A program made the translations under genes and the position numbers. Under the pieces are notes generated by a model. The model was not told the origin of the DNA and searched no databases. It saw only the letters and a list, made by a program, of their open reading frames with translations. Shown in pieces: positions 4,832 to 64,000 of a stretch of DNA of 64,000 nucleotides (the first letter of the stretch is position 1; every line of letters begins with the position of its first letter). Source of the stretch: a virus (lineage: Duplodnaviria > Heunggongvirae > Uroviricota > Caudoviricetes). Location of the stretch: the IMG/VR virus record IMGVR_UViG_3300032038_000042, one strand, 5' to 3'.

Positions 4832-5681
4832 TAGTTAATCCTTTTAATGCTCTTTCTAAACGTAAAATATCTGTATCTTTTACATCTCCAGTTTTTAGAA
4901 TGTTTTTTCTAAAAAGTAAACCTTGTAATTGCTGAGTCTCTAAACTCGTGTGAAAAGTTGAAGGTATTTTTTCTCCTCTACTTTTTTCCGATGCAGAACC
5001 TTCCCCGATTTTTATATTTGAATCGTCAAATATTTTTACTTTGTTATTCAAATAACTTTTTAATAAAGCTGTCCTTTCTTGAATGAGTTTTGCTTGCTTA
5101 ATTCCCCAGTAATCTTTTGGATATCTATAATATTTATTATCTAAACCTTTATAAAAATCTGGTGCTTTATAATTATATAAAATTACTTTATTTAAATTCC
5201 AATTTAACTTTAAGTACTCTGCTAGCTCTTTTAAAGCTCGGGATTTGTCTGTGTTTGTAGGAAAGACTTGTTCGATATCCAAATCAATTACACTTTTTAA
5301 GTTTTCGTAACAAAGTGGACTATACGCATTACAAGAAAAAACAGTTTTTCCTCTATAGGTAATTTTATATGTCCGCATCTCTAATGTACTTAAATCAATT
5401 ACGAGATAGTCAGGATTTATAGACTCTATTGTAGATAATGCAGTTTTATTTAAATCAAACTGCATCGTCTTTTTTGTAAATGGAGCTGTCTCTTCTTTAC
5501 CTTTTATAAAAGGGGCTTCGTAAAAACTCTTGTAAGGAATATTCAAACCACTTTTAGTTGTAATTCCTAAAAAACAAGGTTGAAAAACATACGGTTCTAT
5601 CTCGATGTCTGTACCAGTAACAGCCTCTTTTAAAGTGTTCATACTGTTGCATACGCCAAGTAAAGCTATCTTTTTACTCAT
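4824..5681 (-). CDS. Hypothetical protein co-transcribed with the glycosyltransferases
   Basis: 285-aa ORF overlapping its neighbours by 8 and 4 nt (operon arrangement). No recognised motif. Confidence 0.5.
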   Translation of the reverse strand: MSKKIALLGVCNSMNTLKEAVTGTDIEIEPYVFQPCFLGITTKSGLNIPYKSFYEAPFIKGKEETAPFTKKTMQFDLNKTALSTIESINPDYLVIDLSTLEMRTYKITYRGKTVFSCNAYSPLCYENLKSVIDLDIEQVFPTNTDKSRALKELAEYLKLNWNLNKVILYNYKAPDFYKGLDNKYYRYPKDYWGIKQAKLIQERTALLKSYLNNKVKIFDDSNIKIGEGSASEKSRGEKIPSTFHTSLETQQLQGLLFRKNILKTGDVKDTDILRLERALKGLTSE

Positions 5682-5685
5682 CTTT

Positions 5686-7425
5686 TTAAACCTCGTAAAT
5701 GCATTTATCTGGATACAGTCTCTTAAAGGCCTCTTCTATAAGTCTATAATCCTCGTCTGTAGCTCTATCTGAATCGTTACAACAAATTGCACGAGGCCTT
5801 TCAACTGTAGTTTTCAAAGCTTCAAGAATTTTTTTCGTATCTATTCCAACTTGGAAATATTTGAATCTGAATGTTTCAAAAACACCATGTCCGTGAAAAA
5901 GTGCATACTCTGTAAATATGTACTGATTGTAATTTTTAGCTTCTCTAAAACGTGTAATCGAAGCCTCAATTAAACTTTTGTATCGTTTGAAAACCTCTAC
6001 ATTAATGGATTTTAACATTGGTTTTCCGATATGCTGTAGTTCGTATAAATGTTCTCCGTCTACGTATTTTGATAAATACTCTGGTACATCTCTAGCAGCT
6101 AACTTTAAGCAGTTAATTGGAATTTGAGCCCAAACTTGATTTATATCTCCATCGTGCCAAAGTTTTCTAATATGTAAATCTGCTTTTAATTTACCTTCTT
6201 CTGGGAAATAAAATTTCGGTTTTAAGATATCGTTTGGATACATATCATCATTTGCATATATAAACTTTTCTGACAACCCTGGGATTCTATGCAAAAACAT
6301 TTCAATAGCACAACTGTTAAACGTTGGTAAGTACTCCGCAGGAATAAAATCTTTATGTAATACAATGTGTACTTTTGTTTGATCTATCCAATCTGGTACT
6401 TGATCTGGATCAGAAACTATCATATGTATTACACTTATCCAAGGCATCCACTTTTCTATAGCTCTGAATTTATACTTAAGTAACTCTTCGTGCGCGTTAA
6501 ATCTCTGGAAGTCTATAACGTTGTTGTACTGTTTATATTGATTCTGCCATTGAGCTTTTGTACAGTCGACATACGGGAAGACATAATCGATTTGACTTGG
6601 TCGTGTAATTACACCTTCAAAATGTTTCTTAACGTTAGATTCTATATACTTAAAATTCTCAATTTTCTCTAAATCGAGTAGCATAGAACTAAAGCTTTGC
6701 AAGAACTTTATTTTTCTAGCATCTTTTAAATTACTATGTGATAACGAATTTTGCTGCAGGACGTAATTATATGTAGGTTTATCTAGAGATAATATTTTAC
6801 CAGATTTACAAACAGCCTTAATGTTAAAGATTGTATCCTCGCACATATCACAATCTGCAAACTTTATTTGATTTTCTTTTATTAAAGAGCTTTTATAGAT
6901 TTTATCCCAACAGTGCCCGATATCGTATAAAGGAGTTGATAATATTTTTCCATCCGAAATTTCGTAAATACCGGGTTCACCTAAATGCCATCTTTTTGAA
7001 ACTAATCCTTCTTTAAAAACGTTTACAGCTGTTTGTGCTATATCTACGTTTGCTTCAATTGCGCTGTTTATTAAATAACTAAAATGATTTGGCTCGATCC
7101 AGTCATCGGCATCTACAAAACCAATCCATTCTCCTTTTGAAAGGTATATACCTAAATTACGAGTTGCACCAGGACCTTCGTTAAATTTGTGAATTACTTT
7201 GAATCTAGAATCTTTAACTGCAAAATAATCGCAAATTGTACTCGAGCAATCTGTACTGCAGTCGTCTATTAAAAAGCATTCCCAGTCTGAAATATCCTGA
7301 GCTAAGATAGATTTTAGACACTTCTCTAAAAATCTTTCTGCATTGTATATTGGAATAATAATCGAAAGCTTCATACAAAATAAAATTAGTTTTTTGTAGA
7401 AAAAAGCTTCGGGATTTTTTTTCAA
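5686..7425 (-). CDS. Two-domain glycosyltransferase: N-terminal GT2 domain plus a C-terminal Stealth-like (hexose-phosphate transferase-like) domain
   Basis: The N-terminus carries LSIIIPIYNAERFL...CFLIDDCSTDCS (GT2). The C-terminal roughly 300 aa contain ...FIYANDDMYP..., reminiscent of Stealth/capsule phosphotransferase conserved regions. The Stealth call is tentative. Confidence 0.6.
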   Translation of the reverse strand: MKKNPEAFFYKKLILFCMKLSIIIPIYNAERFLEKCLKSILAQDISDWECFLIDDCSTDCSSTICDYFAVKDSRFKVIHKFNEGPGATRNLGIYLSKGEWIGFVDADDWIEPNHFSYLINSAIEANVDIAQTAVNVFKEGLVSKRWHLGEPGIYEISDGKILSTPLYDIGHCWDKIYKSSLIKENQIKFADCDMCEDTIFNIKAVCKSGKILSLDKPTYNYVLQQNSLSHSNLKDARKIKFLQSFSSMLLDLEKIENFKYIESNVKKHFEGVITRPSQIDYVFPYVDCTKAQWQNQYKQYNNVIDFQRFNAHEELLKYKFRAIEKWMPWISVIHMIVSDPDQVPDWIDQTKVHIVLHKDFIPAEYLPTFNSCAIEMFLHRIPGLSEKFIYANDDMYPNDILKPKFYFPEEGKLKADLHIRKLWHDGDINQVWAQIPINCLKLAARDVPEYLSKYVDGEHLYELQHIGKPMLKSINVEVFKRYKSLIEASITRFREAKNYNQYIFTEYALFHGHGVFETFRFKYFQVGIDTKKILEALKTTVERPRAICCNDSDRATDEDYRLIEEAFKRLYPDKCIYEV

Positions 7426-15046: not shown

Positions 15047-18000
15047 TTGAATATTATGTTAACAGCTGAAACTAAAACAAGCACACTTTGGAAAGCCCAC
15101 AAAGGTTGGGGTTCTACACATACAGAAAGAGAAACATTTGAAGAGTTATATAGATCTTTTAAAGAAATTTCTAGTAACTCGATTTTAGCTTACGGAGATT
15201 TACTTCCAAGAAAACCTACAGACCAGTTTTTTGAGGATGTAAAAGCGCTCGATGCTACAAACGATACTGTTTACTATAAAGAGTCTTCTTTTAGAACTAT
15301 TCCTTTAATCAAAAAACATGTTAATGTAAGACTTACACCTGTTTCGCAGAATTGTGATCATGCATTCGTTATTGCAGATGTAAAAGGTAATCAGATTAAA
15401 AATATCATTCCGTACGATTTTAGTGATAGTGGAATTTACAACTACAAGCTTACGGACTTTTATGGTAATGAAATTCCATGGGGTATTTGCGACTGGGTTA
15501 TAGATACCAACTCTAGTTTGTTAACATTTAACAATGGAATACCAGACACTGTTAGTGCAGCTTATCCTCCAAAATTAACTTTTTATCAGTACATCGGACC
15601 TGTTGGAGAAAGACATTATATAGATGCTGTATTGTTTGATATTACAGAAGCTGTTTACGAACCATATAAACCGGTTTTGGATATTACAGATCTTGTATCA
15701 ACTCAACTTGATCAAATTGAAAAGGACTTTTTTAACAAAACAAAATTCTCCGGAGATGATACAAACCCTGGTATTGGTTTACAATATAACGTCTTATCTA
15801 ATGTAATTAAAACTGCGACTCAAGATCCAATAAAAGGTTACGACGATAATAGTAAAGCTCAAGTTGTAAGTTTAATTTCTCATTTAAAAGGTTCTACAAC
15901 AGATGCAGAAGTTCTATTTGTAAGTGAAGGAATTGATACTTCAAAAACATATAATATTCAAATAGAAGAAGGTGCAGCCGAAAAAGATAATATTGCTAAA
16001 ATAGAAACTGAAGATGGTTTTTTCATCATCCGAGGTTTGCCAGGAAATTATCAAGTAACAGTAGAGGAAGATCAAAGAGCATATGCAGCTCTTTTAGTTA
16101 AGGATAACGATACTCAAGAATACGAGGTTTTTTATCCAAGAGAAGAGTTAAATGTTACTTTAAAACTTCCAGTATTTGTAGATTTAATTAATTTCCCTCC
16201 ACATTTAAAGTTAACTACATTAACATCTTACTCGGATCACATTACACCACAATTTTACGGTCCACGTGTTGCGGACTTTGTAATTGCAGCAGGTAACTCT
16301 ACAGTTAATTGGCGTTCTGCAGATTATGTAGTTTACAATTATGAGGGTTTTTTCTTAAGAGATGCAATCGCAGCAAGAGAAGGTAATCACATTTTCTTAA
16401 GAAACGGTATTTACGAAAATGATAATAAAGAATTGCTCATTCCAAACAACATTTATCTGCACGGTGAATCTCGAGAAGAAGCAATCATTAAAAATGCAAA
16501 AATTAGATTAGGTAAAGATGCAAGCTTAGATACTCTCAGTTTTCAAGACTGCGAAGTAATAGTTGATAGTTATGCAGCAATAAAGAATTGTAATTTTACA
16601 AATACTCCAGTTTATGTAAGAAATGGACAAAAAACAGCTGTAATGCATGGTTGTTCTTTTGAAGATTTGGAAATAGATGGAAACGATCACATTGCAGATT
16701 CTCAGGTTTTACGATTAAAGATAACAGGTTCTGCAAACTTGTTCGGTACAGCTGTTGTTGAAACTTTAGATGTAAATAACGGAACTTTTGAAGCATTCGG
16801 GTCTTACATAAAGAGTTTTAAGCACACAGATGGAACATTTTACATAAACTCATGTAACATCGGAACATTAAATGTAATAAATAGTAGCAAAAATTCTGTA
16901 TTAAATACAACTGCAATCGGTTATGTTGAAAATCTTCCAGACTTTATCAAAATCGATACGAGTTATGTAACAAAGTTTTCTGACAAAATTACAAGAAGAG
17001 TTTATCCAGATGAAGCTACAATTCCGTATTACTCAAGTTTCGAAAGAAGAGTTTACGCAAAGTTACCAGATCCATTCTTATATGATGAAGAAACAAATAA
17101 ATTAAATATAAAAATCGATACAATTGAGCATACGATTTTTATTAACAAAAACGGTGAACTTCAATGTAGATTCTTCTCTGCAGATGAGATTTGGATTAAA
17201 GATCCCGATATTTTTAAAACTCAAATTGAAGATGTTTACAGTGAACATGCAGATACAAAATTAGATCATCCAAAGCCAATTCATGTAGAAGAGGCTTTAG
17301 TTGATATATACTGGTCTAAAGCAGATTTAAAAAATGGTAAAGTTCCAATCAGTCAACTTCCAGATTCTGTTGCTTACGGTGGTTTAAGTTTAGTTGGAAT
17401 GTGGTCTTTTGAAGACAGCGAAGGTAAATATCCAACTTTTGCAGATGTAGATACTCAATTTGGATCTGATGACGAATATACAGGGTTACAAAACGGTTGG
17501 TTCTTTATTGTAAGTGCATCTCATGCAGAAGATGATCCAGTTAAACCTCAATATTCAGAAGATGGTGTTGAATGGACTGCGGGTGACTGGATTATTTATA
17601 CAGGTGGAAAAAAGCATCTTATAGACTACTTAAAACCAATTCGTTTCTTGTATAAAGGTCAAAATGCAAGCTTACTAGAGAGTTCAAACGAAACTGTTAC
17701 GTATGAAATTCCATTAGAAAAGATAAAGCATGAAGTTTCTGGGGATGGAAGTTTTGAAGGCTCTTACGAAGGTAGCTATGAAGGTTCTTACGAGGGTAGT
17801 TACGAGGGAAGCTCAGAATCGAGTGGTGGAGGTGTTACTGTAATTGATTATGGTACAGTAACAATTGATAAAGAAGGAAAAATTGTAAAGACTTATAACT
17901 TACCTCGTACTTTTACAATTGGTAAGCTATTAAAAGATGTTCCTGGACTTTATATTCGAGAGTATCAATACTCAATGGTATCAGATGGAGATAGCTGGTC

Positions 18001-19771
18001 AAAATTAGATAGAGCTTATCTCGACCCTGTATACTCAAGATTACCAAACTTAGCAACTGCTGCAGGTGCAGACAATCCACAATGGTCTATTGAAGATGGA
18101 GGAACAGGTCTTTTAAGACTTTCTTATAAGTCCCTTGCAGAAGCAATTCGCTTAATTAACGAAACTCTTTTAAAGCTTTCTCCGGATAGACCTACATCTA
18201 TTCAAAACATCGATGTAATTTTTGATGAAGAAAAAACTACAGCTAAGCTTATAGATGTATATCCTATCAGTACAGGTTTGCAATTAAATCAAGTTATTAA
18301 AGAAAACGAACCTTTACATTATTATGATTCTGATTCCGGAAAAATATGCTTTAAGCAAAAAGGTGATCATGATTATTTACCTCTTGAGAATTGTTTTTAC
18401 TGCGGTACTTCATCAACAATAAAAGTTTTAGACTACGAAGGAGACAAAACAGAGGATGTTACCGATAAATATGCAACAATCGAAAGGTTTGATCCTTATC
18501 AAAAATACAGATTAGGTTTTAGAGCACCAACTGTAATGGATGCTGCAGAGGTATCTGGTACAATAAATCTCGGAGAAGGTGATTTTAGAGTTGCTCATAA
18601 GGTAAGGTTTGTACAAGAGGATTTAGTATGCACACCACAAGTAACAGACTTAAAAGAGACTTTAGAAGGTGAAACACGTTCATTTATAAGCTTTGTAGAA
18701 AGTAAAATTTATAAATTCGAATCGATAAAAGTTCAACCGTGTACAGCTCAAACAGTTAACTTGCGTGTCTTGAATACTTTCTTAAACTCTTGTAGGACAG
18801 GTGGATACGGATACGTACCAAACGGACAAAAAATTACCGGTACATTCTTAATTAAAAACTTTACAAAATACGGAGTTGTAGGTAAGGATGCTAATATCGA
18901 ATTAGCAGCTACATTTGCAGGTATTGATTTACCAATTACAATTGAATCTCAAACATTACTTGAAACAGATACAACGTACGAAACTTTTGATTTGGAAGTT
19001 GCATTTACTACTACTTTGCCAGCAGAAAAGGATTATTACGATAGTCAATTGTTGGTAACTGTAAGCGCAAGAAACTTCGATCAAGAAATTAAAAATGAGC
19101 AAGTTTTACTTATAAAAGATTTAATTACAATCAATCCCGATTCAATTCAAAAAATTGTTGAGCCAAGTGGTGCACTACTTTATCCGACTCTTGGAAGAGG
19201 TTCAAATACTTTCGGAGATGAGTATTTAGGTAAAACAGTTCTAAATGTAATCAATAGTCCAGAGCTTGTTTGGGAAGAAAACGGTTATGGTTGGCCAAAA
19301 AGGAGTAAGTTTGTAGATAGATTTAACTTACCAGAAAACGATTATGCAATTCCGGAGCAGAATGGTATAATTGTAGGTGACAATACCTATAGGTTTGTTT
19401 GCTATAAGTTTAGTTTTGACAAAATTCAGGATTTGTGCGGCTTTAATGTAAATTTTGAATGGGCTGAAAACGAACCTAAGTTAAAATCTATAGATGGTAC
19501 TTACGAAAACATAATGCTTCAAGTTTGTGTAGATTCTTTAGAAGCAAAACATAAATATTTGTTAAACGGAAATAAAGCAGTTCCAGTTTTCTTTGAAGCT
19601 ACTTTTGAACAAGATGAAACTTGCAACCACCCAGGAAAAAGTAATTTAACAAAACGAAGAATTACATTTGGTAGAAAACCTATTCCTATACAAGATATTT
19701 ATATAAGAGTTGGTGTTGCAAAAGATTCAGGTGTTAGAATTAAAAAATGCTATGTGACAACAGAGGAGTAA
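15047..19771 (+). CDS. Giant tail-fibre / tailspike-like protein with a parallel beta-helix (pectate-lyase-like depolymerase) region and a (GSYE)n repeat
   Basis: 1574-aa ORF with a TTG start at 15047 (the first ATG is at 15056). Residues about 430-620 show repeated NxxIxG / N-rich beta-helix rungs (…NAKIRLGKDASLDTLSFQDCEVIVD…NCNFTNTPVYVRNG…). GSYEGSYEGSYEGSYEGS lies at nt about 17758-17810. Confidence 0.6.
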   Translation: MNIMLTAETKTSTLWKAHKGWGSTHTERETFEELYRSFKEISSNSILAYGDLLPRKPTDQFFEDVKALDATNDTVYYKESSFRTIPLIKKHVNVRLTPVSQNCDHAFVIADVKGNQIKNIIPYDFSDSGIYNYKLTDFYGNEIPWGICDWVIDTNSSLLTFNNGIPDTVSAAYPPKLTFYQYIGPVGERHYIDAVLFDITEAVYEPYKPVLDITDLVSTQLDQIEKDFFNKTKFSGDDTNPGIGLQYNVLSNVIKTATQDPIKGYDDNSKAQVVSLISHLKGSTTDAEVLFVSEGIDTSKTYNIQIEEGAAEKDNIAKIETEDGFFIIRGLPGNYQVTVEEDQRAYAALLVKDNDTQEYEVFYPREELNVTLKLPVFVDLINFPPHLKLTTLTSYSDHITPQFYGPRVADFVIAAGNSTVNWRSADYVVYNYEGFFLRDAIAAREGNHIFLRNGIYENDNKELLIPNNIYLHGESREEAIIKNAKIRLGKDASLDTLSFQDCEVIVDSYAAIKNCNFTNTPVYVRNGQKTAVMHGCSFEDLEIDGNDHIADSQVLRLKITGSANLFGTAVVETLDVNNGTFEAFGSYIKSFKHTDGTFYINSCNIGTLNVINSSKNSVLNTTAIGYVENLPDFIKIDTSYVTKFSDKITRRVYPDEATIPYYSSFERRVYAKLPDPFLYDEETNKLNIKIDTIEHTIFINKNGELQCRFFSADEIWIKDPDIFKTQIEDVYSEHADTKLDHPKPIHVEEALVDIYWSKADLKNGKVPISQLPDSVAYGGLSLVGMWSFEDSEGKYPTFADVDTQFGSDDEYTGLQNGWFFIVSASHAEDDPVKPQYSEDGVEWTAGDWIIYTGGKKHLIDYLKPIRFLYKGQNASLLESSNETVTYEIPLEKIKHEVSGDGSFEGSYEGSYEGSYEGSYEGSSESSGGGVTVIDYGTVTIDKEGKIVKTYNLPRTFTIGKLLKDVPGLYIREYQYSMVSDGDSWSKLDRAYLDPVYSRLPNLATAAGADNPQWSIEDGGTGLLRLSYKSLAEAIRLINETLLKLSPDRPTSIQNIDVIFDEEKTTAKLIDVYPISTGLQLNQVIKENEPLHYYDSDSGKICFKQKGDHDYLPLENCFYCGTSSTIKVLDYEGDKTEDVTDKYATIERFDPYQKYRLGFRAPTVMDAAEVSGTINLGEGDFRVAHKVRFVQEDLVCTPQVTDLKETLEGETRSFISFVESKIYKFESIKVQPCTAQTVNLRVLNTFLNSCRTGGYGYVPNGQKITGTFLIKNFTKYGVVGKDANIELAATFAGIDLPITIESQTLLETDTTYETFDLEVAFTTTLPAEKDYYDSQLLVTVSARNFDQEIKNEQVLLIKDLITINPDSIQKIVEPSGALLYPTLGRGSNTFGDEYLGKTVLNVINSPELVWEENGYGWPKRSKFVDRFNLPENDYAIPEQNGIIVGDNTYRFVCYKFSFDKIQDLCGFNVNFEWAENEPKLKSIDGTYENIMLQVCVDSLEAKHKYLLNGNKAVPVFFEATFEQDETCNHPGKSNLTKRRITFGRKPIPIQDIYIRVGVAKDSGVRIKKCYVTTEE

Positions 19772-20964: not shown

Positions 20965-21711
20965 TCACTCGTTATCGTTACCAGTTTCAAATGAACTGTC
21001 TCCGAAAATCCAATCAAGAGCATCTTCATAATCCTGGGAAGCCAAAGTTCTACAATCTGGATTTTCCCTTGGATCTGACTGATGATCGATGTAACCACCA
21101 AAATCAATCCAATTGGAAATATCTGGATGTGCTTTCCATTCATTCAATGGAGCTTCTTTCAAGTGCTCCAAAGATTTAATGAAGCAACTCTCTCCGTAGT
21201 CACCCTCTGTCTCCCAAAAGGTGTCTCGATCATCTCCAATGAATTTGTGTTCTTCGTTCATGTAGTGGAAGTAACTGAATTTGCAACCCTTTTCTTTAAG
21301 GAAATCAAAAAGACCTTTTACTTTATCGTAAGCAAGATTGCGGATGTAATTGACATTTTCTTCATCAATTTCCTTGTAGTGCTTAATCCAATATTCATCG
21401 TTCTTTTCTTTTGCTCTTGCAATGTCCGTTAGCGAGCCAAAACAAAATGAATACTCTCCCCAGGACTTTTCAAGGTTGTGACGTTCTCCATACTCATTTT
21501 TCTGCATAAGGGAAAGCCAATCGCATAAAGCAACCAGGTAGTAAGAAAACTTTGACTGTGAATCAGAGTAACTTTCGAACTCCCATCCGAACTCATCACC
21601 TTTCCAATTTAAAGTACCATTTTTACCTGCACCGCTTCCTTTTGAAGCGAATGTAAGTGAATGTGCTGAACTTGAATTTGTTTCAAACGTATTTATACGA
21701 ATCGATTTCAT
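20965..21711 (-). CDS. Member 1 of the MKSIR-xx-TFETNSSS-xHS N-terminal family (acidic, 248 aa)
   Basis: N-terminus MKSIRINTFETNSSSAHSLTF. It shares its first ~18 residues with the ORFs at 32513, 40449 and 46999, which otherwise have unrelated bodies. Confidence 0.55.
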   Translation of the reverse strand: MKSIRINTFETNSSSAHSLTFASKGSGAGKNGTLNWKGDEFGWEFESYSDSQSKFSYYLVALCDWLSLMQKNEYGERHNLEKSWGEYSFCFGSLTDIARAKEKNDEYWIKHYKEIDEENVNYIRNLAYDKVKGLFDFLKEKGCKFSYFHYMNEEHKFIGDDRDTFWETEGDYGESCFIKSLEHLKEAPLNEWKAHPDISNWIDFGGYIDHQSDPRENPDCRTLASQDYEDALDWIFGDSSFETGNDNE

Positions 21712-23429
21712 GCTTCCTCCAAAAACTGGCTAAATTGTTTAATCTGACTTGCTGTATAAACCTTTTCAATTGGCATATCAATCTTTCTACACCAGTCGGA
21801 AACGATTGAAGGATCGATATACGAATTTTTTGCTGTTCCTGACGTAAAATTCTGGTTACGTTCTTTTGACTCAAGGTTAAGCTCAGCTTGATCGATTTTA
21901 GCTTTTGATTTTTCAATCTGCTCTTTCAAAGCTTTAATCTTATCCTTGTAACCATCCTTTTTAGCAGCTTTCAAAGCCTTGATCTTTTCTTCACGCTTTT
22001 TATTCTGCTCTACAACTTTTGCTTTACGCTCGTCGAGTTTTTCTTCAGAAGCTTTGAAGCTTGCTTTACGCTTTTCTTCAGCAACCTTATTTACACCACG
22101 CTGATGATTCAAACGACGTGCAACCTGCATTGTAGCTTCATCAAATGCAATCTTTTTAAGTGCAATTGGCGAATCTTTTGTTACTTTGAACTTTGCAGTC
22201 ATCTCTTCAAGTGCTTTAGTAGCTGTATAAGCTGCAACTGCAGTACGTGCAAGTTTTGGAGTAAAGATTCCGTCAAGCTCTGGAACGACCTGAGAAATGT
22301 ATTGCTTAATCTGAAGCTTATCTGTCTTGAGCTTTTTGTCCTTTGCCCAAGTTTCTTCAATAACATCTGCATATTCAGTTTCAATTACGCTTGTATCTCT
22401 TACAGAATCTTTTCCGTAAAAGTCAAACTTAATTTTATTTCCTGAACGCTTAACTTCTTTTCCCCATTCAAGTGCAAGAAGCCCTTTTGTACCATTTATA
22501 GTTTCGCTTGCAGAACCAATTCGAATACCTTTTTCGAAAAGCATGAAAACTGCAACTGCTGTACTCAAGTCCTTTTTTGCTTTAAAATCGCTTGCTATTT
22601 TTGCAAGTACTTTTTCGTAAGATTTTCCAAGTGTTGCTCCTGCAGCGTACTTTTTTGTCTGGCCTTCCTTCTTTACGGAAGAAGCAGCAGCAAACTGAAT
22701 CATCTTGTATTTTGTTGACTTAAGTGTTTTGATAGAACCATCTGCATTTGGAATTCCAACATTAATGTTGTACTGAGCAGCAAAATGTGATTCTGGATTC
22801 CAATCAACGTTCCAAGCAAAACCACTTGTAATTAGCATTTCACCATCTTCGCCATAATAAAGCACTTCTGGAAGCTTTTTGCTGTTTGTGTTAAGTTTAA
22901 CATCTGCAGCTGTATTTTCGAATTTCCAATATCCGTTAAGGGGTGAATCTCCTCGTCCGAAGAAAATTCCTTCTGGTTCAATTGTCCAGCTTGCAAGCGG
23001 TTCGTCGTTACCGTTAATCTTTACAATACCGTATTTTGCTTTAAGTTCTTCATTCTGCTTTTTGATTTCGGCTGCATTAGCCTTTTTCCAAGCAGCTTTG
23101 CATTCTTTTGCTTCCGCGTACCATTTACGCCATTTTGCAATTTCTTTATCGTTTGCTACAAAATTAACCAAATCTGGATACTTTGTAAAGTCTTTTCCAC
23201 CTGCAGAAGCAATGCAGGTAAAAACACGCTTAATAAACTTTGTATCCTGCATGCAAGGAAGTTCCGGATTAATACGACAAAAAGCTCCAAAAATGCGGTC
23301 TGAAAGTTTATTTTTATCTGCAAAAGGGGGAACTGGGATTCTTGCTGGAATACCAATTCCTTTTATTTCTACTGATGTTAAATCCTGTAACTTCATTTCG
23401 TAACCTCGCCGTATAATATAGTGATACAC
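21708..23429 (-). CDS. Type IB DNA topoisomerase (573 aa) with an N-terminal extension and a coiled-coil linker between the catalytic His and Tyr
   Basis: ...FYGKDSVRD... (Arg), ...TPKLARTAVAAYTATK... (Arg), ...ARRLNHQRG... (His) and ...GTAKNSYIDPSIVSDWCRK... align with poxvirus/bacterial TopIB motifs (...GTSKLNYLDPRITVAWCKK...). About 95 residues of K/E-rich heptad sequence separate the His and Tyr. Confidence 0.7.
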   Translation of the reverse strand: MYHYIIRRGYEMKLQDLTSVEIKGIGIPARIPVPPFADKNKLSDRIFGAFCRINPELPCMQDTKFIKRVFTCIASAGGKDFTKYPDLVNFVANDKEIAKWRKWYAEAKECKAAWKKANAAEIKKQNEELKAKYGIVKINGNDEPLASWTIEPEGIFFGRGDSPLNGYWKFENTAADVKLNTNSKKLPEVLYYGEDGEMLITSGFAWNVDWNPESHFAAQYNINVGIPNADGSIKTLKSTKYKMIQFAAASSVKKEGQTKKYAAGATLGKSYEKVLAKIASDFKAKKDLSTAVAVFMLFEKGIRIGSASETINGTKGLLALEWGKEVKRSGNKIKFDFYGKDSVRDTSVIETEYADVIEETWAKDKKLKTDKLQIKQYISQVVPELDGIFTPKLARTAVAAYTATKALEEMTAKFKVTKDSPIALKKIAFDEATMQVARRLNHQRGVNKVAEEKRKASFKASEEKLDERKAKVVEQNKKREEKIKALKAAKKDGYKDKIKALKEQIEKSKAKIDQAELNLESKERNQNFTSGTAKNSYIDPSIVSDWCRKIDMPIEKVYTASQIKQFSQFLEEA

Positions 23430-27260: not shown

Positions 27261-28550
27261 ATGTGGAAAATTCACGGAGAAATGGTCTCTAACGAAAGAG
27301 ACGTAATGGAACATTTTGGTCTAAAATACCCACCTATTGTAAAATCACTTTTGGATACCGACTTATATAAGTATAGCATGGGCCAAACGTATCATCATCA
27401 ATTTGGAAATCTAAAGACAACTTGGGATTTTAAAGCTCGCAATGTTGGCGAAAACACAACTCACACTTCTATCTATACAGAAGAGGACAAAAAAGAGATA
27501 AACAATCAGCTTTGCGCTTACGCAGCACTTCGTTTTGATGAAGATGAATTGCAATATCTCAATGCAAAATGTCCTTGGATTAAGCAAGATTACATCAACT
27601 TCTTGCGCTTTTGGCATCCACGCCTAGAAGACTTTCAATGCACAACTAACAACAAGTTCGGTAATGGAATTATGTTTTTTGGTGTTCAAGAGTATATTGA
27701 ATACTACGAGATTCCAGTCCTCGAAATTTTTGCCGAAGTCTATTACAGAAACCACTACAATTATGATGAGCTTCTTGCAGGTTTCAAAGAAAAGACTAAC
27801 GAAAAAATCGCTGAAATGAAGAGCAACAAAGACCTTCATTTTGGAACTTGGTCAGAGTTTGGAGCACGTCGTCGCCTTTCATTTGAAGCTCAAGACTGGT
27901 TGATTGGTCGTCTTACAGAAGAAAAGCTTCCAGGTTTTATTGGAACTTCAAACGTTCTTTTGGCAAAAAAGTATAAAGTCACACCTGTTGGAACTTGTGC
28001 TCATGAATTTATTGAATGCGTTGGCCAGGGAAATCCAATGTACAATCCAGCTTACAGCAATAAGATTGCAATGGAAGCTTGGATAAAAGAATATGGTGTT
28101 TGGAACGGAATTTGGTTGACTGACACTATTGGTGATGAACTTTGCCGTAGAGACATGCAAAAAACTTATGCAACACTTTTCAGTGGAGTTCGTAACGATT
28201 CCGGAGATCCATTTAAGTGGGCAGATGATTGGATAAATCATTATACCAATCTTGGAATTGATCCAAAAACCAAAACTTTGCTTTTCAGTAACAGTATAAA
28301 TTCTCTTGAGCTTTGGTCAAAGTTGTGCTTTTATGTCGAAGGTCGTGCTAAACCTGCTTTCGGAATTGGAACGTATTGGTCTGGCCCGCAAACTATTGAT
28401 CCTCTTAACATTGTTGCAAAAGTCGTTCTTGTAAATGGAAAAGATGTTGCAAAACTTTCTGATGATAGCGGAAAGACAATGAGTCGTAGTCAAGAGTATG
28501 TTGATTACCTTCGCAGAACTCTCGATTGGCGTTTAAAATCTGAGGAGTAA
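27261..28550 (+). CDS. pncB: Nicotinate phosphoribosyltransferase
   Basis: ...SLLDTDLYKYSMGQTYHHQFGN... matches the PncB N-terminal signature (E. coli ...[20 protein letters not shown]...). The 429-aa length is typical. Strong SD. Confidence 0.8.
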   Translation: MWKIHGEMVSNERDVMEHFGLKYPPIVKSLLDTDLYKYSMGQTYHHQFGNLKTTWDFKARNVGENTTHTSIYTEEDKKEINNQLCAYAALRFDEDELQYLNAKCPWIKQDYINFLRFWHPRLEDFQCTTNNKFGNGIMFFGVQEYIEYYEIPVLEIFAEVYYRNHYNYDELLAGFKEKTNEKIAEMKSNKDLHFGTWSEFGARRRLSFEAQDWLIGRLTEEKLPGFIGTSNVLLAKKYKVTPVGTCAHEFIECVGQGNPMYNPAYSNKIAMEAWIKEYGVWNGIWLTDTIGDELCRRDMQKTYATLFSGVRNDSGDPFKWADDWINHYTNLGIDPKTKTLLFSNSINSLELWSKLCFYVEGRAKPAFGIGTYWSGPQTIDPLNIVAKVVLVNGKDVAKLSDDSGKTMSRSQEYVDYLRRTLDWRLKSEE

Positions 28551-28553
28551 AAA

Positions 28554-29135
28554 ATGATTACACCAAAACTTTTGAATAAAACAAAAGAAGTAGACCTTAT
28601 CAAAACTCCAGTCTTTACTGTTGTTGAAAAAGAATACGAAAATCTGGAATTCAAACCAGTAGGATTGAATTGCAAAGATTGGGTAATGGTTATTGCTAAA
28701 GACTCAATTTCAGATCCAGTCTGTGTTTTTGTAAAGCAAACAAGATGGGGTTGTGAGCATTCCACAATTGAATTTCCTTGCGGTACAGTAGACTTAAATG
28801 AAAGTCCTGTAGAAGCTGCAGTAAGAGAATTTCGAGAAGAAACAGGTATTGAGGTTGCACAATCTTCGTTAAAAGAGATTGCAACATTCAATCCAAATCC
28901 AGCTTACTTTAACAATCTTATGCACATTTTTGAATTTGTAGACAGAGGTTTGTTGAGCAAGTTCTTAAATAAGAAAAAGCAAAAGCTGGATAAAAACGAG
29001 GATTGCGAAGTCTTTGTTGATAGACTTGAAAATCAAGCAACACTCTTAAAGAAAGGTGGAATGAGTTTAATTGGATATGTATATGCTTCAAAAGTAAATA
29101 CATCTGCAAAGTACGAATTGAAGGAGATTAAATAA
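28554..29135 (+). CDS. Nudix hydrolase
   Basis: Perfect Nudix box GTVDLNESPVEAAVREFREETGI (Gx5Ex7REUxEExGU). Confidence 0.75.
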   Translation: MITPKLLNKTKEVDLIKTPVFTVVEKEYENLEFKPVGLNCKDWVMVIAKDSISDPVCVFVKQTRWGCEHSTIEFPCGTVDLNESPVEAAVREFREETGIEVAQSSLKEIATFNPNPAYFNNLMHIFEFVDRGLLSKFLNKKKQKLDKNEDCEVFVDRLENQATLLKKGGMSLIGYVYASKVNTSAKYELKEIK

Positions 29136-29136
29136 C

Positions 29137-29712
29137 ATGAAAAATAAATTTTTAGTTGTAATTGATATGCAGAATGATTTCTGTACAGGTGCTTTGAAAA
29201 ACGATGATGCAGTAGCTGTAATTCCTTTTATTAAAAAGCAGATTGAGGAAGCTCGTAAGAATGGTACTCGAATTGTTTATACTCGCGATACTCACGGAAG
29301 CGATTATATGGAAACACTCGAAGGAAAGCATCTTCCATTTCCTCACTGCTTGAATGAATCCTTTGGTTGGGAAATCGTAGATGAACTTAAACCAGTTAAT
29401 CCGATAGTATTTGCTCCCTTTGGAGTTATTTGTAAGATGATTGAGAATGATCCAAAAGCCGATATTGTTGTAAACAAAAATCATTTCGGTTTTGATGGAT
29501 GGAAACATCTCATTCCAGAAGATTCAGAAGTAACAATGGTTGGAACTTGTACAGATATCTGCGTGGTTTCAAACGCATTAGCTATTAAGACTATTGAAGG
29601 TGTTGAAGTAACAATTCTTGCAAATGGTTGCGCTGGTTTGACAAAAGAAAAGCACGAACATGCTCTTGATGTAATGGAAAGTTGTCAGTGTAAAGTTGTT
29701 AGAGGAGAGTAA
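29137..29712 (+). CDS. pncA: Nicotinamidase (isochorismatase-family cysteine hydrolase)
   Basis: FLVVIDMQNDFCTGAL aligns with E. coli PncA LLLVDLQNDFCAGGAL. Catalytic Cys context ...VGTCTDICVVSNA. Confidence 0.75.
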   Translation: MKNKFLVVIDMQNDFCTGALKNDDAVAVIPFIKKQIEEARKNGTRIVYTRDTHGSDYMETLEGKHLPFPHCLNESFGWEIVDELKPVNPIVFAPFGVICKMIENDPKADIVVNKNHFGFDGWKHLIPEDSEVTMVGTCTDICVVSNALAIKTIEGVEVTILANGCAGLTKEKHEHALDVMESCQCKVVRGE

Positions 29713-29714
29713 AA

Positions 29715-30524
29715 ATGGGTCCAAAAAAGTTCGATGTAAAAGAAGTTCACGACGAGATTATTGAGTTTATTAAAGACTTCTTTAAGGATAAAAATGGTCC
29801 TGCTACATTAGGAATTTCCGGGGGAAAGGACAGTACCATTTGTGCAGCTTTGTTAGCAGAAGCTTTAGGTCCAAAAAGAGTTGTTGGCGTAATGATGCCA
29901 AACGGTGTCCAGATGGACCTTAACGACTCTGTCAAAGTTTGTGAACTTTTGGGAATTCAGGCAATGAAAGTAAACATTGGTCCAGTTTACGATGCTTTGA
30001 GAGATCAGATTGATACATCTGATATTAAAGAGTCTCCTGATCAGTGGACACCTCTTTTCACAACAAATACTCCTGCACGACTTCGAATGGTAACACTTTA
30101 CGGTATTGCTGCTCAACTTGGCGGCTTTGTTTGCAACACTTGCAACTATTCAGAAGACTTTGTCGGTTACTCTACAAAGTATGGAGATTGTTGCGGAGAC
30201 TTTTCTTTATTGAATCAGCTTACAAAAACTGAAGTTGTTGCTTTAGGTGACTATATGAAACTTCCAAAAGAGTTAGTTCATAAAACACCTTCGGATGGAA
30301 TGTGCGGAAAGAGTGATGAAGATAATATGGGCTTTACATATGACTCTTTGGATACTTTTATCAGAACTGGATTAGCTCCAAAATCATTTGAAGTTTATAA
30401 CAAAATCAAAAAGATGCATCTCAATCCAAATACAAAACTAAAGTTGCTGCCAATGTCTTATCCGGAATTGCATTTGGAAGAAAATTGGAAGTTTGAAGAC
30501 CCAATTGGAGAAGTTTTAGCTTAA
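29715..30524 (+). CDS. nadE: NH3-dependent NAD+ synthetase
   Basis: PP-loop GISGGKDSTICAALL (SGGxDS). The 269-aa length matches NadE. Confidence 0.75.
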   Translation: MGPKKFDVKEVHDEIIEFIKDFFKDKNGPATLGISGGKDSTICAALLAEALGPKRVVGVMMPNGVQMDLNDSVKVCELLGIQAMKVNIGPVYDALRDQIDTSDIKESPDQWTPLFTTNTPARLRMVTLYGIAAQLGGFVCNTCNYSEDFVGYSTKYGDCCGDFSLLNQLTKTEVVALGDYMKLPKELVHKTPSDGMCGKSDEDNMGFTYDSLDTFIRTGLAPKSFEVYNKIKKMHLNPNTKLKLLPMSYPELHLEENWKFEDPIGEVLA

Positions 30525-60744: not shown

Positions 60745-61065
60745 ATGACATTACTTGATCATCAGTTTCTTTTAAGTCTTCCAAAACGGAGAGGTTTTAC
60801 AAAGTGTACAATAAATAACAATGTATACGCAAATATCTACACACTTGGAATTCCGAACAGAGCTTCTAAGTCAGGTTATTCATATTTCTGCGGAACAGAT
60901 AAAGGTAATCCGTGGAAAGGAAGAGAGAATGCGATAGACGAGATTTACCACGATTTGAAGGATTACGTCGATCGCAGAATTGGTACAGAATTTGAAAAAA
61001 ATGTAAAGGATTTAATTCCTTACGTAAAGCGTTTTGAAAGAGCATTTCCAGGAGTATTGAAGTGA
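60745..61065 (+). CDS. Hypothetical protein (106 aa) preceding rtcB
   Basis: ORF with an ATGA overlap into rtcB. Confidence 0.45.
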   Translation: MTLLDHQFLLSLPKRRGFTKCTINNNVYANIYTLGIPNRASKSGYSYFCGTDKGNPWKGRENAIDEIYHDLKDYVDRRIGTEFEKNVKDLIPYVKRFERAFPGVLK

Positions 61066-62291
61066 TTGAAATTACAGGAAAGTATAATACAGCAAAAGTT
61101 TTGGTTTCTGATTGGACAAAGTTGGAAGAAGCTTGTCACAAGCAGATTTTGAATTTGCTTAACCAGAAGTTTGCAGAAGGATCAAAGATTGCTATCATGC
61201 CCGATTGTCACAGCGGAGCTGGCTGCGTAATTGGTTTTACTCAGACTATTGTTGACAGAGTCGTTCCAAATCTTGTCGGAGTTGATATTGGATGCGGAAT
61301 GCTTGTTTTGAAAATCGACAAAAAGTATGGCAAAGAACTCTTTAACAAACCAAATCTTGAAAAGCTTGACAAAGTAATCCGTCAGCATATTCCAATGGGA
61401 ATGAATCACAGAAATAAAAAACATGCTTTTTGTGATAAAGTTCACATTAATGAAATTAAGGCTCCAATTAACGCAGAAAAGCTTATGTTGAGTATTGGAA
61501 CAATAGGTGGTGGAAATCACTTTATCGAAGTTGATAAGGACAGCAATGGAGATTATTACATCGTAATTCACTCCGGATCTCGTCACCTCGGAATTGAAGT
61601 CTGTAAATACTATCAGAATTTGGCTATCAAATATCACTCTTCAAATACAAAAGAAAGAGATGAATTGGTTGCAAAATTGAAAGCTGAAGGAAGAGAAAAA
61701 GACATTCAAGCTGAACTTGCAAAGATCAAAAAGGAACCAATTCCAAACGAACTTGCATATTTGGAAGGAAACGATCTTAAAGATTATCTTCACGATATGA
61801 AACTTGCTCAGGAGTATGCAATTTGGAATCGCGAAGCAATGCTTGATGAAATTATGGAACACATGGGAATCAAAAAGAAGATGATTCTTGATAAGTTCTG
61901 TACAATTCACAACTACATCGATGTTGAAAACAGAATTCTTCGTAAGGGATCAATTTCTCTTCAGAAAGATGAAACAGCTATTATTCCAATAAATATGAGC
62001 TACGGCAGCTTGATTGTAAAGGGAAAAGGAAACGCAGAATACAACTTTTCAGGTCCTCACGGAGCAGGAAGGTTAATGTCGCGTTCAGCAGCAAAAGAAT
62101 CTCTTAAAATGGAGGATTTCAAAGCTTCTATGAAAGATGTTTTTACAACTTCAGTTTCAACTGCAACAATTGACGAAGCCCCAATGGCTTACAAACCTGC
62201 TGAAGATATTTTGGAAAACATTAAAGATCTTTGCGATGTAGTAGAAGTTATTAAACCAATCTACAACGTAAAAGCAGGTGACGAGGAATAA
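61062..62291 (+). CDS. rtcB: RNA 3'-phosphate ligase RtcB
   Basis: ...MPDCHSGAGCVIGF..., ...IGGGNHFIEV..., ...CTIHNYID... and ...GPHGAGR... are the RtcB metal-binding and guanylylation motifs. 409 aa. Confidence 0.8.
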   Translation: MIEITGKYNTAKVLVSDWTKLEEACHKQILNLLNQKFAEGSKIAIMPDCHSGAGCVIGFTQTIVDRVVPNLVGVDIGCGMLVLKIDKKYGKELFNKPNLEKLDKVIRQHIPMGMNHRNKKHAFCDKVHINEIKAPINAEKLMLSIGTIGGGNHFIEVDKDSNGDYYIVIHSGSRHLGIEVCKYYQNLAIKYHSSNTKERDELVAKLKAEGREKDIQAELAKIKKEPIPNELAYLEGNDLKDYLHDMKLAQEYAIWNREAMLDEIMEHMGIKKKMILDKFCTIHNYIDVENRILRKGSISLQKDETAIIPINMSYGSLIVKGKGNAEYNFSGPHGAGRLMSRSAAKESLKMEDFKASMKDVFTTSVSTATIDEAPMAYKPAEDILENIKDLCDVVEVIKPIYNVKAGDEE

Positions 62292-62309
62292 AGTTTTTCT
62301 AAAACTTTT

Positions 62310-62370
62310 TTAGTCAAGATCGACTATATTCATTCTTGAACAGTTGAAAAAATTAGTCGATCTTGACTAA
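62310..62370. repeat. Perfect 17-bp inverted repeat (TTAGTCAAGATCGACTA ... TAGTCGATCTTGACTAA) with a 27-nt spacer
   Basis: Read directly: 62310-62326 is the reverse complement of 62354-62370. It could be the rtcB terminator or a protein-binding/recombination site. Confidence 0.6.
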
Positions 62371-62384
62371 CTAAAAATTAGCAC

Positions 62385-62409
62385 TGCATAGGATGTTCCT
62401 ATTTTTATT
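62385..62409. repeat. Copy 1 of the 25-bp direct repeat TGCATAGG(A/T)TGTTCCTATTTTTATT (internal palindrome ATAGGA..TCCTAT)
   Basis: 24/25 identical to 63755-63779. The two copies bracket the non-coding RNA cassette. Confidence 0.6.
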
Positions 62410-62427
62410 TTTTTACAAAAAAAGTTA

Positions 62428-62449
62428 GATCGCTCTTCGGAAGAGCGAT
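62428..62449. promoter_or_regulatory. GC-rich palindrome ATCGCTCTTCGGAAGAGCGAT abutting the -35 element (operator-like or attenuator hairpin)
   Basis: Near-perfect 21-bp palindrome ending exactly where TTGAAA begins. Confidence 0.4.
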
Positions 62450-62477
62450 TGAAATACATCTCGCAGTTTAATATATA
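62449..62477 (+). promoter_or_regulatory. Sigma70-type promoter TTGAAA - 17 nt - TATATA driving the tRNA/tmRNA cassette
   Basis: -35 at 62449-62454 and -10 at 62472-62477 with a 17-nt spacer. Predicted start near 62485. Confidence 0.5.
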
Positions 62478-62697
62478 TATGCTAAAATGAGGTGAAATAA
62501 ATTCACAAGCAAGAGCTGCTCCTCATTGCTGAAGGCTCTTATAAAAATTGTGTGAATGTGTATGACAGTTTCTAGATCTTGTCACGTGACTTAAGGGGCT
62601 AAGGCCCTTCAGTGAAGTAAGAGTCTTCCGAGTTATAGGATTAGAAATTGTAACGAAACAGCACCCTTTTGACAGAGGTTGTGATAGGACGTTTTTT

Positions 62698-62770
62698 GGC
62701 CCTATTCGTTAACTGGATAAACGACCAGACTTCTAATCTGATAATCCCCGTTCGAGTCGGGGTAGGGTCA
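62698..62770 (+). tRNA. tRNA-Arg (anticodon TCT)
   Basis: Hand-folded cloverleaf. Acceptor GGCCCTA/TAGGGTC (7 bp, one G-U). D-arm CGTT-aactggata-AACG with G18G19. Anticodon arm CAGA-cTTCTAa-TCTG with U33 and A37. 4-nt variable loop. T-arm CCCCG-TTCGAGT-CGGGG. Discriminator A, no encoded CCA. Confidence 0.6.
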
Positions 62771-62902
62771 ATTTACCCATTGTGGATGGAAACGGTTTTA
62801 TGGTAGTTAGGTATAACAAAGGTCTTAAAACCTAGTTCTACAAGTGACTTGCGAAAGACAATCTAACAGTCAGCTACTTTTGCAAGTTGCGAAACTTTCT
62901 AC

Positions 62903-63280
62903 GGGGGTGAAAGGATTCGACTTGCAGGTAAGTAACAAAATTATCAGGTACATAAGTTATTGCACTTTAAAAGCAAACGTAACAAACGACGAAGAACAGT
63001 TTGAAGACATGAGAATGGCTGCTTAACCGCAACCTTCAAATGTTCCTAGTCCAAAGAGATTAGGTGCTTTGCGGAGAGGTTCCTATAGTATCCAAAAAAG
63101 TATCGCTACAATAGGATAAGGATTAGTAGAGAGGAGTCTGAAACCTGTAACTGATCACGAAAACAAACTGGTGGTAGAATCCGGTAGTCATTCCGAACAG
63201 AAAACTGACTTAAACCTGTATAGAAGTAGTTTTGTAAAAACCTGTTACAAGGACCCGGCTATCATATGCCGGCATCTCCA
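62903..63280 (+). ncRNA. ssrA: tmRNA (ssrA); predicted tag peptide ANVTNDEEQFEDMRMAA
   Basis: 5' end GGGGGTGAAAGGATTCGACTTGCAGG matches the tmRNA consensus (E. coli GGGGCUGAUUCUGGAUUCGACGGG). An A-rich stretch precedes the resume codon GCA at 62973, and the frame ends GCT GCT TAA at 63026. The 3' end has GGAC + T-arm CCGGC/GCCGG + acceptor CATCTCC pairing with GGGGGTG (two G-U) + A. The T-loop appears 8 nt long, which is atypical. Confidence 0.6.
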
Positions 63281-63745
63281 TTAAGGTATTTGTTTCCAAG
63301 TTTTTTGAAGCTTCCTTATAACTTCGGTTTGAAACATTAATGAAACTTGGTGGTGGATGAATGGTTGCCAAATCGGTGACATTCCCTAATACCTTTTAGC
63401 CTCAAAAGCTATTAGGTGTTTTAAGCTTTTGCTTCGAGTAAAGAACGCTAGAGTGAGTGACCGTAGCTACATAGTAGGATGAGTTACTTCAGAAAAAGAG
63501 AGTGGTGCGTATCTGAAAGCTCTCGTTTAGGTGTTATGTACAAGCACCTGTATAAGTATGATGTAGCAAGAGTGTTCCTCGCGGAGCTTTAAAAAGGGTA
63601 AATTGCTAGCTATACCTGGATTGGGGTTTGAGTAGTCTGTAAGCAACTTTACTGAACTGCAGAAAACAATTCTGAATAACCTTAAAGGTGGTATTGAAAG
63701 AGGAACGAAGCGTCCGAAAGGAAAGAGTAGGGATCTTTTTTTTGA
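63281..63745 (+). ncRNA. Unassigned GC-enriched non-coding RNA segment downstream of tmRNA, ending at an intrinsic terminator
   Basis: About 465 nt with no ORF of protein-like composition, visibly higher GC than the genome, and many local stems (e.g. TCCGAAAGGA). It ends with ...GTAGGGATCTTTTTTTTG at 63730-63745. No match to RNase P, SRP, 6S or tRNA consensus could be made by eye. Confidence 0.3.
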
Positions 63746-63754
63746 AAATTAAAT

Positions 63755-63779
63755 TGCATAGGTTGTTCCTATTTTTATT
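63755..63779. repeat. Copy 2 of the 25-bp direct repeat TGCATAGGTTGTTCCTATTTTTATT
   Basis: See copy 1. It lies immediately after the cassette terminator and upstream of the next + gene. Confidence 0.6.
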
Positions 63780-64000
63780 CTTAAGCAAAGATTTATACAA
63801 TCCGCAATTTTTTCTATATAAGATATGAAAATTAAATTCAGAAACTTTTGGATTTGGTTTAAGGATCAAATTATGTGAAGGAATTAACTTAACACCGTGC
63901 GGAAAAATAAAACTGTAAAGAAAGCAAAGAAACAAACTGCTGCAGCAAAAATGAAAGAAGAGTTTCGCTTGACACCTGAATGGTGGGCAATGCGAAAAGA

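Follow-up and report, generated by a model that had tools for sequence, protein, structure and literature searches.

A phage RtcB gene pair beside a lineage-specific RNA island carrying a tRNA-Arg and a probable, divergent tmRNA

Introduction

Phage T4 uses Pnkp and Rnl1 to repair tRNA-Lys cut by PrrC, whereas RtcB ligates 3'-phosphate to 5'-OH ends directly, needs no separate healing enzyme and elsewhere has archease as its cofactor. Huge phages with transfer-messenger RNA (tmRNA) were reportedly described by Al-Shayeb et al. in 2020, and published phage-tmRNA surveys leaned largely on ARAGORN. Phage tmRNAs are on record in the Bxz1-group mycobacteriophages and phage G (PMC4131195, PMC12484599), tmRNA together with SmpB has been recorded in huge phages (PMC7162821) and a 2025 tmRNA database holds 79 phage sequences (PMC11915505); the RtcB that accompanies tRNA sets in jumbo phages was read by Iyer et al. 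(2021) as a defence against tRNA-cleaving effectors (PMC7824862). Here we analyse a 64,000-nt sequence of a Caudoviricetes virus (IMG/VR record IMGVR_UViG_3300032038_000042) in which an rtcB gene is followed by a tRNA-Arg gene and a probable tmRNA gene. Throughout, 'the window' denotes this whole stretch, and coordinates count from its first letter.

Each of the three parts (RtcB, tRNA and tmRNA) is of a kind already known from huge phages. Like the RtcB of jumbo phages and Pnkp/Rnl1 of T4, the ligase retains its motifs, lies in a genome with its own tRNA and is presumed to repair nuclease-cut tRNAs; unlike the T4 enzymes it belongs to a family that ligates directly, and it is accompanied by no RtcA or recognisable archease, only by a conserved 106-aa open reading frame (ORF). 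The tmRNA candidate resembles those of the Bxz1 group, Bacillus phage G and huge phages in being cargo of a large genome with tRNA, translation or RNA-repair genes. What is mildly unusual is the divergence of this tmRNA, a T-arm that it has in common with otherwise unrelated viral tmRNAs, and the repeat-bounded non-coding island in which it lies. The initial annotation had taken the three genes for a dedicated translation-rescue cluster and had called phage-encoded tmRNAs rare, a description that sits poorly with the records above and with the more than 30 viral loci carrying tmRNA genes in our own scans. Our preferred explanation, to which we assign a probability of roughly 0.7, is that a large-phage RtcB gene pair is followed here by a lineage-specific tRNA-Arg/tmRNA island, the two sharing a theme without forming a conserved operon.

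RtcB and its genomic neighbourhood

The rtcB gene (61062–62291, + strand) matches Pfam PF01139 (E = 3.2e-63, 215 bits), and its catalytic motifs MPDCHSG, DIGCG, GGGNHF, HSGSRHLG and HGAGR align to the solved TTHA1785 and PH1602 chains, in line with its earlier assignment as an RNA ligase of this family. The domain match is full-length and the active site is intact: the alignment shows both the Cys/His/Asp residues that bind metal and the His of HGAGR that accepts GMP. A protein search returned 8000+ homologues, the closest at 98% identity. Members of the family seal 2',3'-cyclic-phosphate or 3'-phosphate ends to 5'-OH ends (PMC7824862). Immediately upstream, the 106-aa ORF (60745–61065, + strand) shares 4 nt with the start of rtcB, to which it is translationally coupled. 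The ORF has no Pfam match, and its single-sequence AlphaFold2 model (pLDDT 50) was unusable; it may be an RtcB cofactor. The same ORF also precedes rtcB in three of the nearest relatives (L022, L100 and L102), and the two genes form a conserved phage gene pair.

The arrangement downstream of this pair is not conserved. In the four nearest relatives (L022, L100, L101 and L102), RtcB is 96–98% identical at the amino acid level and 92–95% at the nucleotide level. Upstream, synteny extends over the 106-aa ORF wherever the contig reaches that far (L022, L100 and L102) and, in L022, also over a helicase gene. Downstream, the blastn alignments of all four break off at window positions 62292–62294, which is the RtcB stop codon, and different protein-coding genes follow. 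Across these genomes, three unrelated arrangements are found downstream of RtcB: the RNA island of the window, a terminator followed by a 132-aa ORF (L100/L101), and a DUF7695 gene (L022/L102). Relatives whose RtcB is 72–83% identical (L023–L026) have no RNA gene nearby, and RtcB-adjacent RNA genes are missing also in L103 and L106. The adjacency of RtcB, tRNA and tmRNA is thus a lineage-specific insertion, an accident of a mosaic genome and not a conserved operon, which leaves the claim of a dedicated cluster unsupported.

In more distant huge-phage relatives (L003/L004 and L106), tRNA arrays lie 4–6 kb from RtcB, which is a loose association only. One contig of about 305 kb (L103) carries an additional PF09414 RNA ligase (17719–18366) about 7 kb from RtcB, and another of about 305 kb (L106) has a six-tRNA cluster (4670–6199) 4–5 kb upstream of RtcB. 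The content of these two contigs suggests that the lineage has a region, loosely organised, for RNA repair and translation.

The non-coding RNA island

The non-coding DNA after rtcB spans 1.6 kb; within it, the tRNA-Arg and tmRNA genes sit in an island of about 1.35 kb that is bracketed by 35-nt direct repeats (62385–62419 and 63755–63789, both + strand). The two copies, recovered in a repeat search, are 86% identical and occur nowhere else in the 64 kb, with none expected by chance; each consists of a hairpin, ATAGGA-TGT-TCCTAT, and a T-run. GC content steps at these repeats, from 26–29% outside to 38–41% inside (other intergenic gaps, 22–36%), and the island flanks are as GC-rich as the tmRNA itself. 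The repeat could be a reused terminator or a scar of recombination or mobility. Between the left copy and rtcB, directly 3' of the stop codon, lies a long inverted repeat (62299–62381; arms of 28 nt, loop of 27 nt), a probable transcript-end hairpin.

The tRNA-Arg gene (about 62698–62770, + strand) has anticodon UCU, which reads AGA/AGG, and is the single ARAGORN tRNA call in the window (tRNA-Arg(tct), 62697–62771). Against Rfam RF00005 it scores 51 bits (gathering score 29) with all four arms aligned, and its 3' tail reads ...GGGTCA-ATT, without an encoded CCA. Its anticodon suits the window's dominant arginine codon: AGA makes up 57% of arginine codons (19.5 per 1000 codons) and AGG 12%, together 69%. 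Both the tRNA-Arg(TCT) call and the AGA enrichment expected in the initial annotation were therefore recovered.

The tmRNA candidate (62903–63283, + strand) is a one-piece gene of 381 nt that aligns end to end with positions 1–374 of the Rfam RF00023 model (44 bits, E = 9.2e-16, in a permissive scan of 1.75 kb). Much of it is that of a standard bacterial tmRNA (SsrA, RF00023), from its length to its 5' tRNA-like domain, which is canonical (GGGGGUGAAAGGAUUCGAC). The acceptor stem of 7 bp pairs GGGGGUG (62903–62909) with CAUCUCC (63273–63279), with G3:U70 as the third pair, and is followed by a discriminator A at 63280. Acceptor stem, T-arm and a long helix 2 all form in an unconstrained minimum free energy (MFE) fold (z = -2.4). 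The tag frame (62973–63026, + strand; translated and aligned to the RF00023 tag region) follows an A-rich tract, opens at the resume codon GCA and runs for 17 codons to UAA (63024–63026), exactly as had been claimed; the tag peptide, ANVTNDEEQFEDMRMAA, has the canonical Ala-Ala C terminus. Unlike standard SsrA, the gene has UUA in place of CCA (tail ...CUCCA-UUA), a T-arm, CCGGC-UAUCAUAU-GCCGG, whose stem is intact and whose loop has 8 nt against the canonical 7, and a poor match in PK1, helix 5 and PK4; it lies in a phage genome and not beside smpB. The tag frame is also open upstream to a GTG at 62844, giving a 60-aa ORF (62844–63026, + strand) that gene callers could mis-annotate as a protein.

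Viral tmRNAs with the same T-arm

A search for related T-arms uncovered a set of viral loci with the consensus CCGGY-UAUCRUAK-RCCGG followed by CAUCUCCA (L029–L037 from IMG/VR and L086–L099 from JGI metagenomes). Over the T-arm and the 3' strand of the acceptor, the window tmRNA is identical to this family at 29 of 30 nt. A looser 30-nt T-arm/acceptor pattern found 11 IMG/VR loci, 7 of them with the window's loop type, and a T-arm/acceptor 26-mer with Y/R/K degeneracy found 14 JGI metagenome contigs; the exact 26-mer had no match in IMG/VR. No match was returned either by a two-anchor tmRNA pattern in the JGI metagenomes or by a tRNA-Arg pattern in IMG/VR, and when the whole island was compared by blastn with about 100 fetched loci, similarity was confined to the tRNA-like ends. 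Across about 20 loci the pair closing the T-stem is C-G or U-A and never mismatched; this covariation speaks for the 5-bp stem with an 8-nt loop being a real, selected variant.

Three members of the family are, like the window gene, in one piece and without an encoded CCA (L037, L093 and L094); of these, L037, which has the same T-arm, passes RF00023 at 54 bits. Most T-arm carriers, which come from freshwater or sediment contigs, differ from the window gene in being circularly permuted and in two pieces, and the window's similarity to them is confined to the tRNA-like domain. In the permuted genes the acceptor piece ends in CCA, GGGGAUGA.AGGAUUCGAC follows 20–115 nt further on, and scores on RF04321 are 83–115 bits, resembling the beta-proteobacterial type. 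Examples, all on the - strand, are L030 (1987–2221), L034 (8678–8902), L031 (160–391) and L029 (7473–7761), with others among L086–L099; the contigs reach 379 kb, and ARAGORN misses these genes. That this T-loop type is virus-specific is less certain, given that the permuted relatives are beta-proteobacterial-like and that the bacterial search covered the exact 26-mer only.

Two permuted loci (L032, 483–1069, and L035, 916–1502) have a tRNA-Arg(tct) about 160 nt upstream of the tmRNA, which carries the tag ANDNVAYEDYALAA. A recurrent tRNA-Arg(TCT)–tmRNA pair was considered and ruled out, the neighbouring tRNAs being varied or absent across about 30 viral tmRNA loci. Within a 20-tRNA array of the huge-phage contig L031, positions 5544–5735 (- strand) match the group I intron model RF00028 at 69 bits.

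Genome and host context

The window is 33.5% GC and 88% coding. Of 70 ORFs, 46 have upstream Shine–Dalgarno (SD)-like motifs of the AAGGAG type (background 15%), which implies expression in a bacterium that makes strong use of SD sites. For most ORFs neither Pfam nor PHROG gives a match (orphan genes, about 70%). Those recognisable in these scans include nucleotide-metabolism genes (thymidine kinase, dUTPase and dCMP deaminase), DNA methylases, a ResIII/DEAD helicase, glycosyltransferases, an NAD-salvage operon and topoisomerase IB, which are typical accessory genes of large phages; among the scanned ORFs there was no ribosomal protein, SmpB or CCA-adding enzyme.

RtcB relatives at 61–65% identity lie on IMG/VR viral contigs of 58–213 kb with tRNA arrays of at least 11, and further relatives lie on metagenome contigs of 305–306 kb that are rich in small orphan genes. 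The latter have several families in common with the window (AstE/AspA-like, DUF7695, DUF4406, thymidine kinase and NAD/NMN-related). Among deposited phages, those of Bacillus, Listeria, Enterococcus and Clostridioides carry the closest RtcB genes. Taken together, the gene content and relatives suggest that the window is probably a piece of a large phage of about 300 kb with a low-GC, Firmicutes-like host that has strong SD usage. A giant eukaryotic virus, considered on account of the eukaryote-type topoisomerase IB, was rejected, since the SD motifs are strong, genes overlap in operon style and a tmRNA is present.

That topoisomerase IB (21708–23429, - strand) comprises an N-terminal DNA-binding fragment and a C-terminal domain (PF02919, PF01028 and PF14370). 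The NAD-salvage operon (27261–30524, + strand) has four genes, encoding a NAPRTase, a NUDIX hydrolase, a nicotinamidase-like isochorismatase and an NAD synthase, with which the phage may counter defence systems that deplete NAD. Elsewhere in the window, a 1574-aa ORF (15047–19771, + strand) has no Pfam or PHROG match and found nothing by tblastn against deposited phages, and a protein encoded at 63–1127 (- strand) has a GGDEF (diguanylate cyclase-like) domain.

Alternative explanations

Several observations count against a large-phage RtcB pair followed by an island with a working tmRNA. The huge-phage status rests on relatives, the window itself being 64 kb of sequence without a full genome or virion genes. 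The tmRNA score of 44 bits falls below the RF00023 gathering score of 47, and the gene is missing from a gathering-threshold scan. ARAGORN gives no tmRNA by default or with -ps or -ps80, and -ps60 yields overlapping noise only. The 8-nt T-loop lacks the canonical T-Psi-C-R-A pattern, and in the RF00023 alignment pseudoknots PK1–PK4 and helix 5 are poorly matched, with many unpaired or deleted positions. Searches with the exact 26-mer in IMG/VR, the two-anchor pattern in JGI and blastn over the roughly 100 loci found no close relative of the tmRNA body for covariation, and the window encodes neither SmpB nor a CCA-adding enzyme. About 700 nt of island flanks (the 5' leader at 62450–62696, 38% GC, MFE z = -1.39, and the 3' flank at 63284–63724, 38–41% GC, z = -0.15, both + strand) have no ORF with a ribosome-binding site, no Rfam match and no excess folding energy. 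Finally, the sigma-70 promoter claimed in the initial annotation did not emerge: a consensus scan (-35/-10 hexamers with at least 9 of 12 matches, including A2 and T6 of the -10) found no site on the + strand of 62200–64000. The best relaxed candidate (62449–62488, + strand) is weak, with TTGAAA at 62449 and, after a 17-nt spacer, TATATA at 62472 (9/12, the -10 without the conserved T6), followed by an extended -10-like TGCTAAAAT at 62480.

The strongest rival concerns the tmRNA alone. The gene could be a derivative that is in decay or does not tag: a pseudogene, or else a decoy that uses the tRNA-like domain to titrate SmpB, as recorded for the mycobacteriophage DS6A RNA, which consists of the tRNA-like domain only and inhibits tmRNA (PMC4131195, PMC11915505). 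Its score is the lowest among the viral tmRNAs compared, the others reaching 54–148 bits; it is the most divergent of them, and those that ARAGORN likewise missed score 85–148 bits, with L037 at 54. The non-canonical T-loop, the missing CCA, the mostly unmatched pseudoknot helices and the negative ARAGORN result would all fit such a derivative. Set against this, the 17-codon frame is intact, with its GCA resume codon after the A-rich tract and its Ala-Ala end; so are G3:U70 and the 7-bp acceptor stem; many viral tmRNAs that score above Rfam thresholds keep the same T-arm, with covariation; and the long helix 2 folds spontaneously. On these sequence features, the claim of a tmRNA stands as to the full-length RF00023 match and is weakened by the subthreshold score and the silence of ARAGORN. 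We regard a functional tmRNA as probable, if by no wide measure, and a decayed gene or decoy as unlikely while still the main competitor.

Somewhat less likely again is the original idea that RtcB, tRNA-Arg and tmRNA are a selected, co-regulated translation-rescue module with its own sigma-70 promoter, directed against host anticodon nucleases and mRNA damage. All three genes are real and have a common theme, RtcB lies within 4–6 kb of tRNA arrays in several relatives, jumbo-phage RtcB/Rnl ligases have been read as repairing cleaved tRNAs (PMC7824862), and L032 and L035 repeat the tRNA-Arg(TCT) 160 nt upstream of a tmRNA. The adjacency is absent, however, from 9 of the 9 closest RtcB loci examined, and the RtcB stop codon is precisely where homology breaks off. 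Between RtcB and the RNAs there are also a strong hairpin and a repeat that resembles a terminator, there is no consensus promoter, and the tRNAs beside viral tmRNAs are as variable as described above.

It is also conceivable, though we think it improbable, that the island is a mobile non-coding cassette that spreads the tmRNA with the 8-nt T-loop among large phages. In the searches made here, the T-arm/acceptor 26-mer turned up on viral and metagenome contigs only. The tmRNA, perhaps with its roughly 700 nt of flanks, might then redirect host trans-translation, for example through an acidic, non-canonical degron tag or by competing for SmpB.

The last alternative, that the tmRNA belongs to the host, as an ssrA locus bordering an integrated prophage and hence an integration site, draws on the frequent use of tmRNA genes as integration targets (PMC4383910), on the end of the window 700 nt past the tmRNA, which leaves the far side outside it, and on the direct repeats that flank the island. 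Yet Pfam, run on nearly all window ORFs of at least 100 aa, identified no integrase or recombinase. The tmRNA 3' 25-mer is single-copy in the window at up to 3 mismatches, with no second tRNA 3' end and no att repeat, and the flanking repeats are hairpin/T-run elements, not fragments of the tmRNA. A tblastn run that showed smpB beside ssrA in bacterial control loci did not find smpB in the window. Representative genomes covering 185,579 species of bacteria and archaea contained no match to the T-arm/acceptor 26-mer; an exact 19-mer from the tmRNA 5' end is present in 48 genomes from unrelated phyla, Poribacteria, Latescibacterota and CPR among them, and the similarity goes no further. On the + strand an ORF resumes at about 63898 in the same composition and style, and an independent 3.8-kb ENA metagenome contig is identical across the region and extends 14 nt further. 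These comparisons indicate that the tmRNA is phage cargo, and we consider a host ssrA locus highly improbable.

Proposed function and significance

For the preferred combination of an RtcB pair and a lineage-specific island, we propose the following course of events. The site directly downstream of the RtcB pair would be a recombination hot spot at which one lineage carries the RNA island. The island may be transcribed as one precursor, probably from the weak promoter near 62450–62490, with termination probably at the right-hand 35-nt repeat. RNase P would release the 5' ends of tRNA-Arg and tmRNA, and host enzymes would trim the 3' ends and add CCA; because neither RNA gene encodes CCA, host 3' processing and a host CCA-adding enzyme would be required, a need that is consistent with a Firmicutes-type host.

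Once mature, the tRNA-Arg may supplement the decoding of AGA/AGG, 69% of the phage's arginine codons. Host alanyl-tRNA synthetase would charge the tmRNA with alanine via G3:U70, and the charged tmRNA, with host SmpB and EF-Tu, could enter stalled ribosomes and append ANVTNDEEQFEDMRMAA. RtcB would act independently, resealing tRNAs or other RNAs cut to 2',3'-cyclic-phosphate ends. That these genes have in common the theme of translation kept running under RNA damage is a reasonable inference.

The locus enlarges the small group of phage-encoded tmRNAs by a very divergent case. Standard detectors overlook such genes: ARAGORN gives no call, and Rfam shows this one only beneath its gathering cut-off. 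ARAGORN-based counts of phage tmRNAs are therefore probably too low. The locus is also a warning that genes lying side by side in a single mosaic phage genome need not be a functional module, since the nearest relatives do not keep the RtcB–RNA order. Should the tmRNA prove active, the unusual T-loop and the acidic tag would probe the tolerance of SmpB, EF-Tu and proteases.

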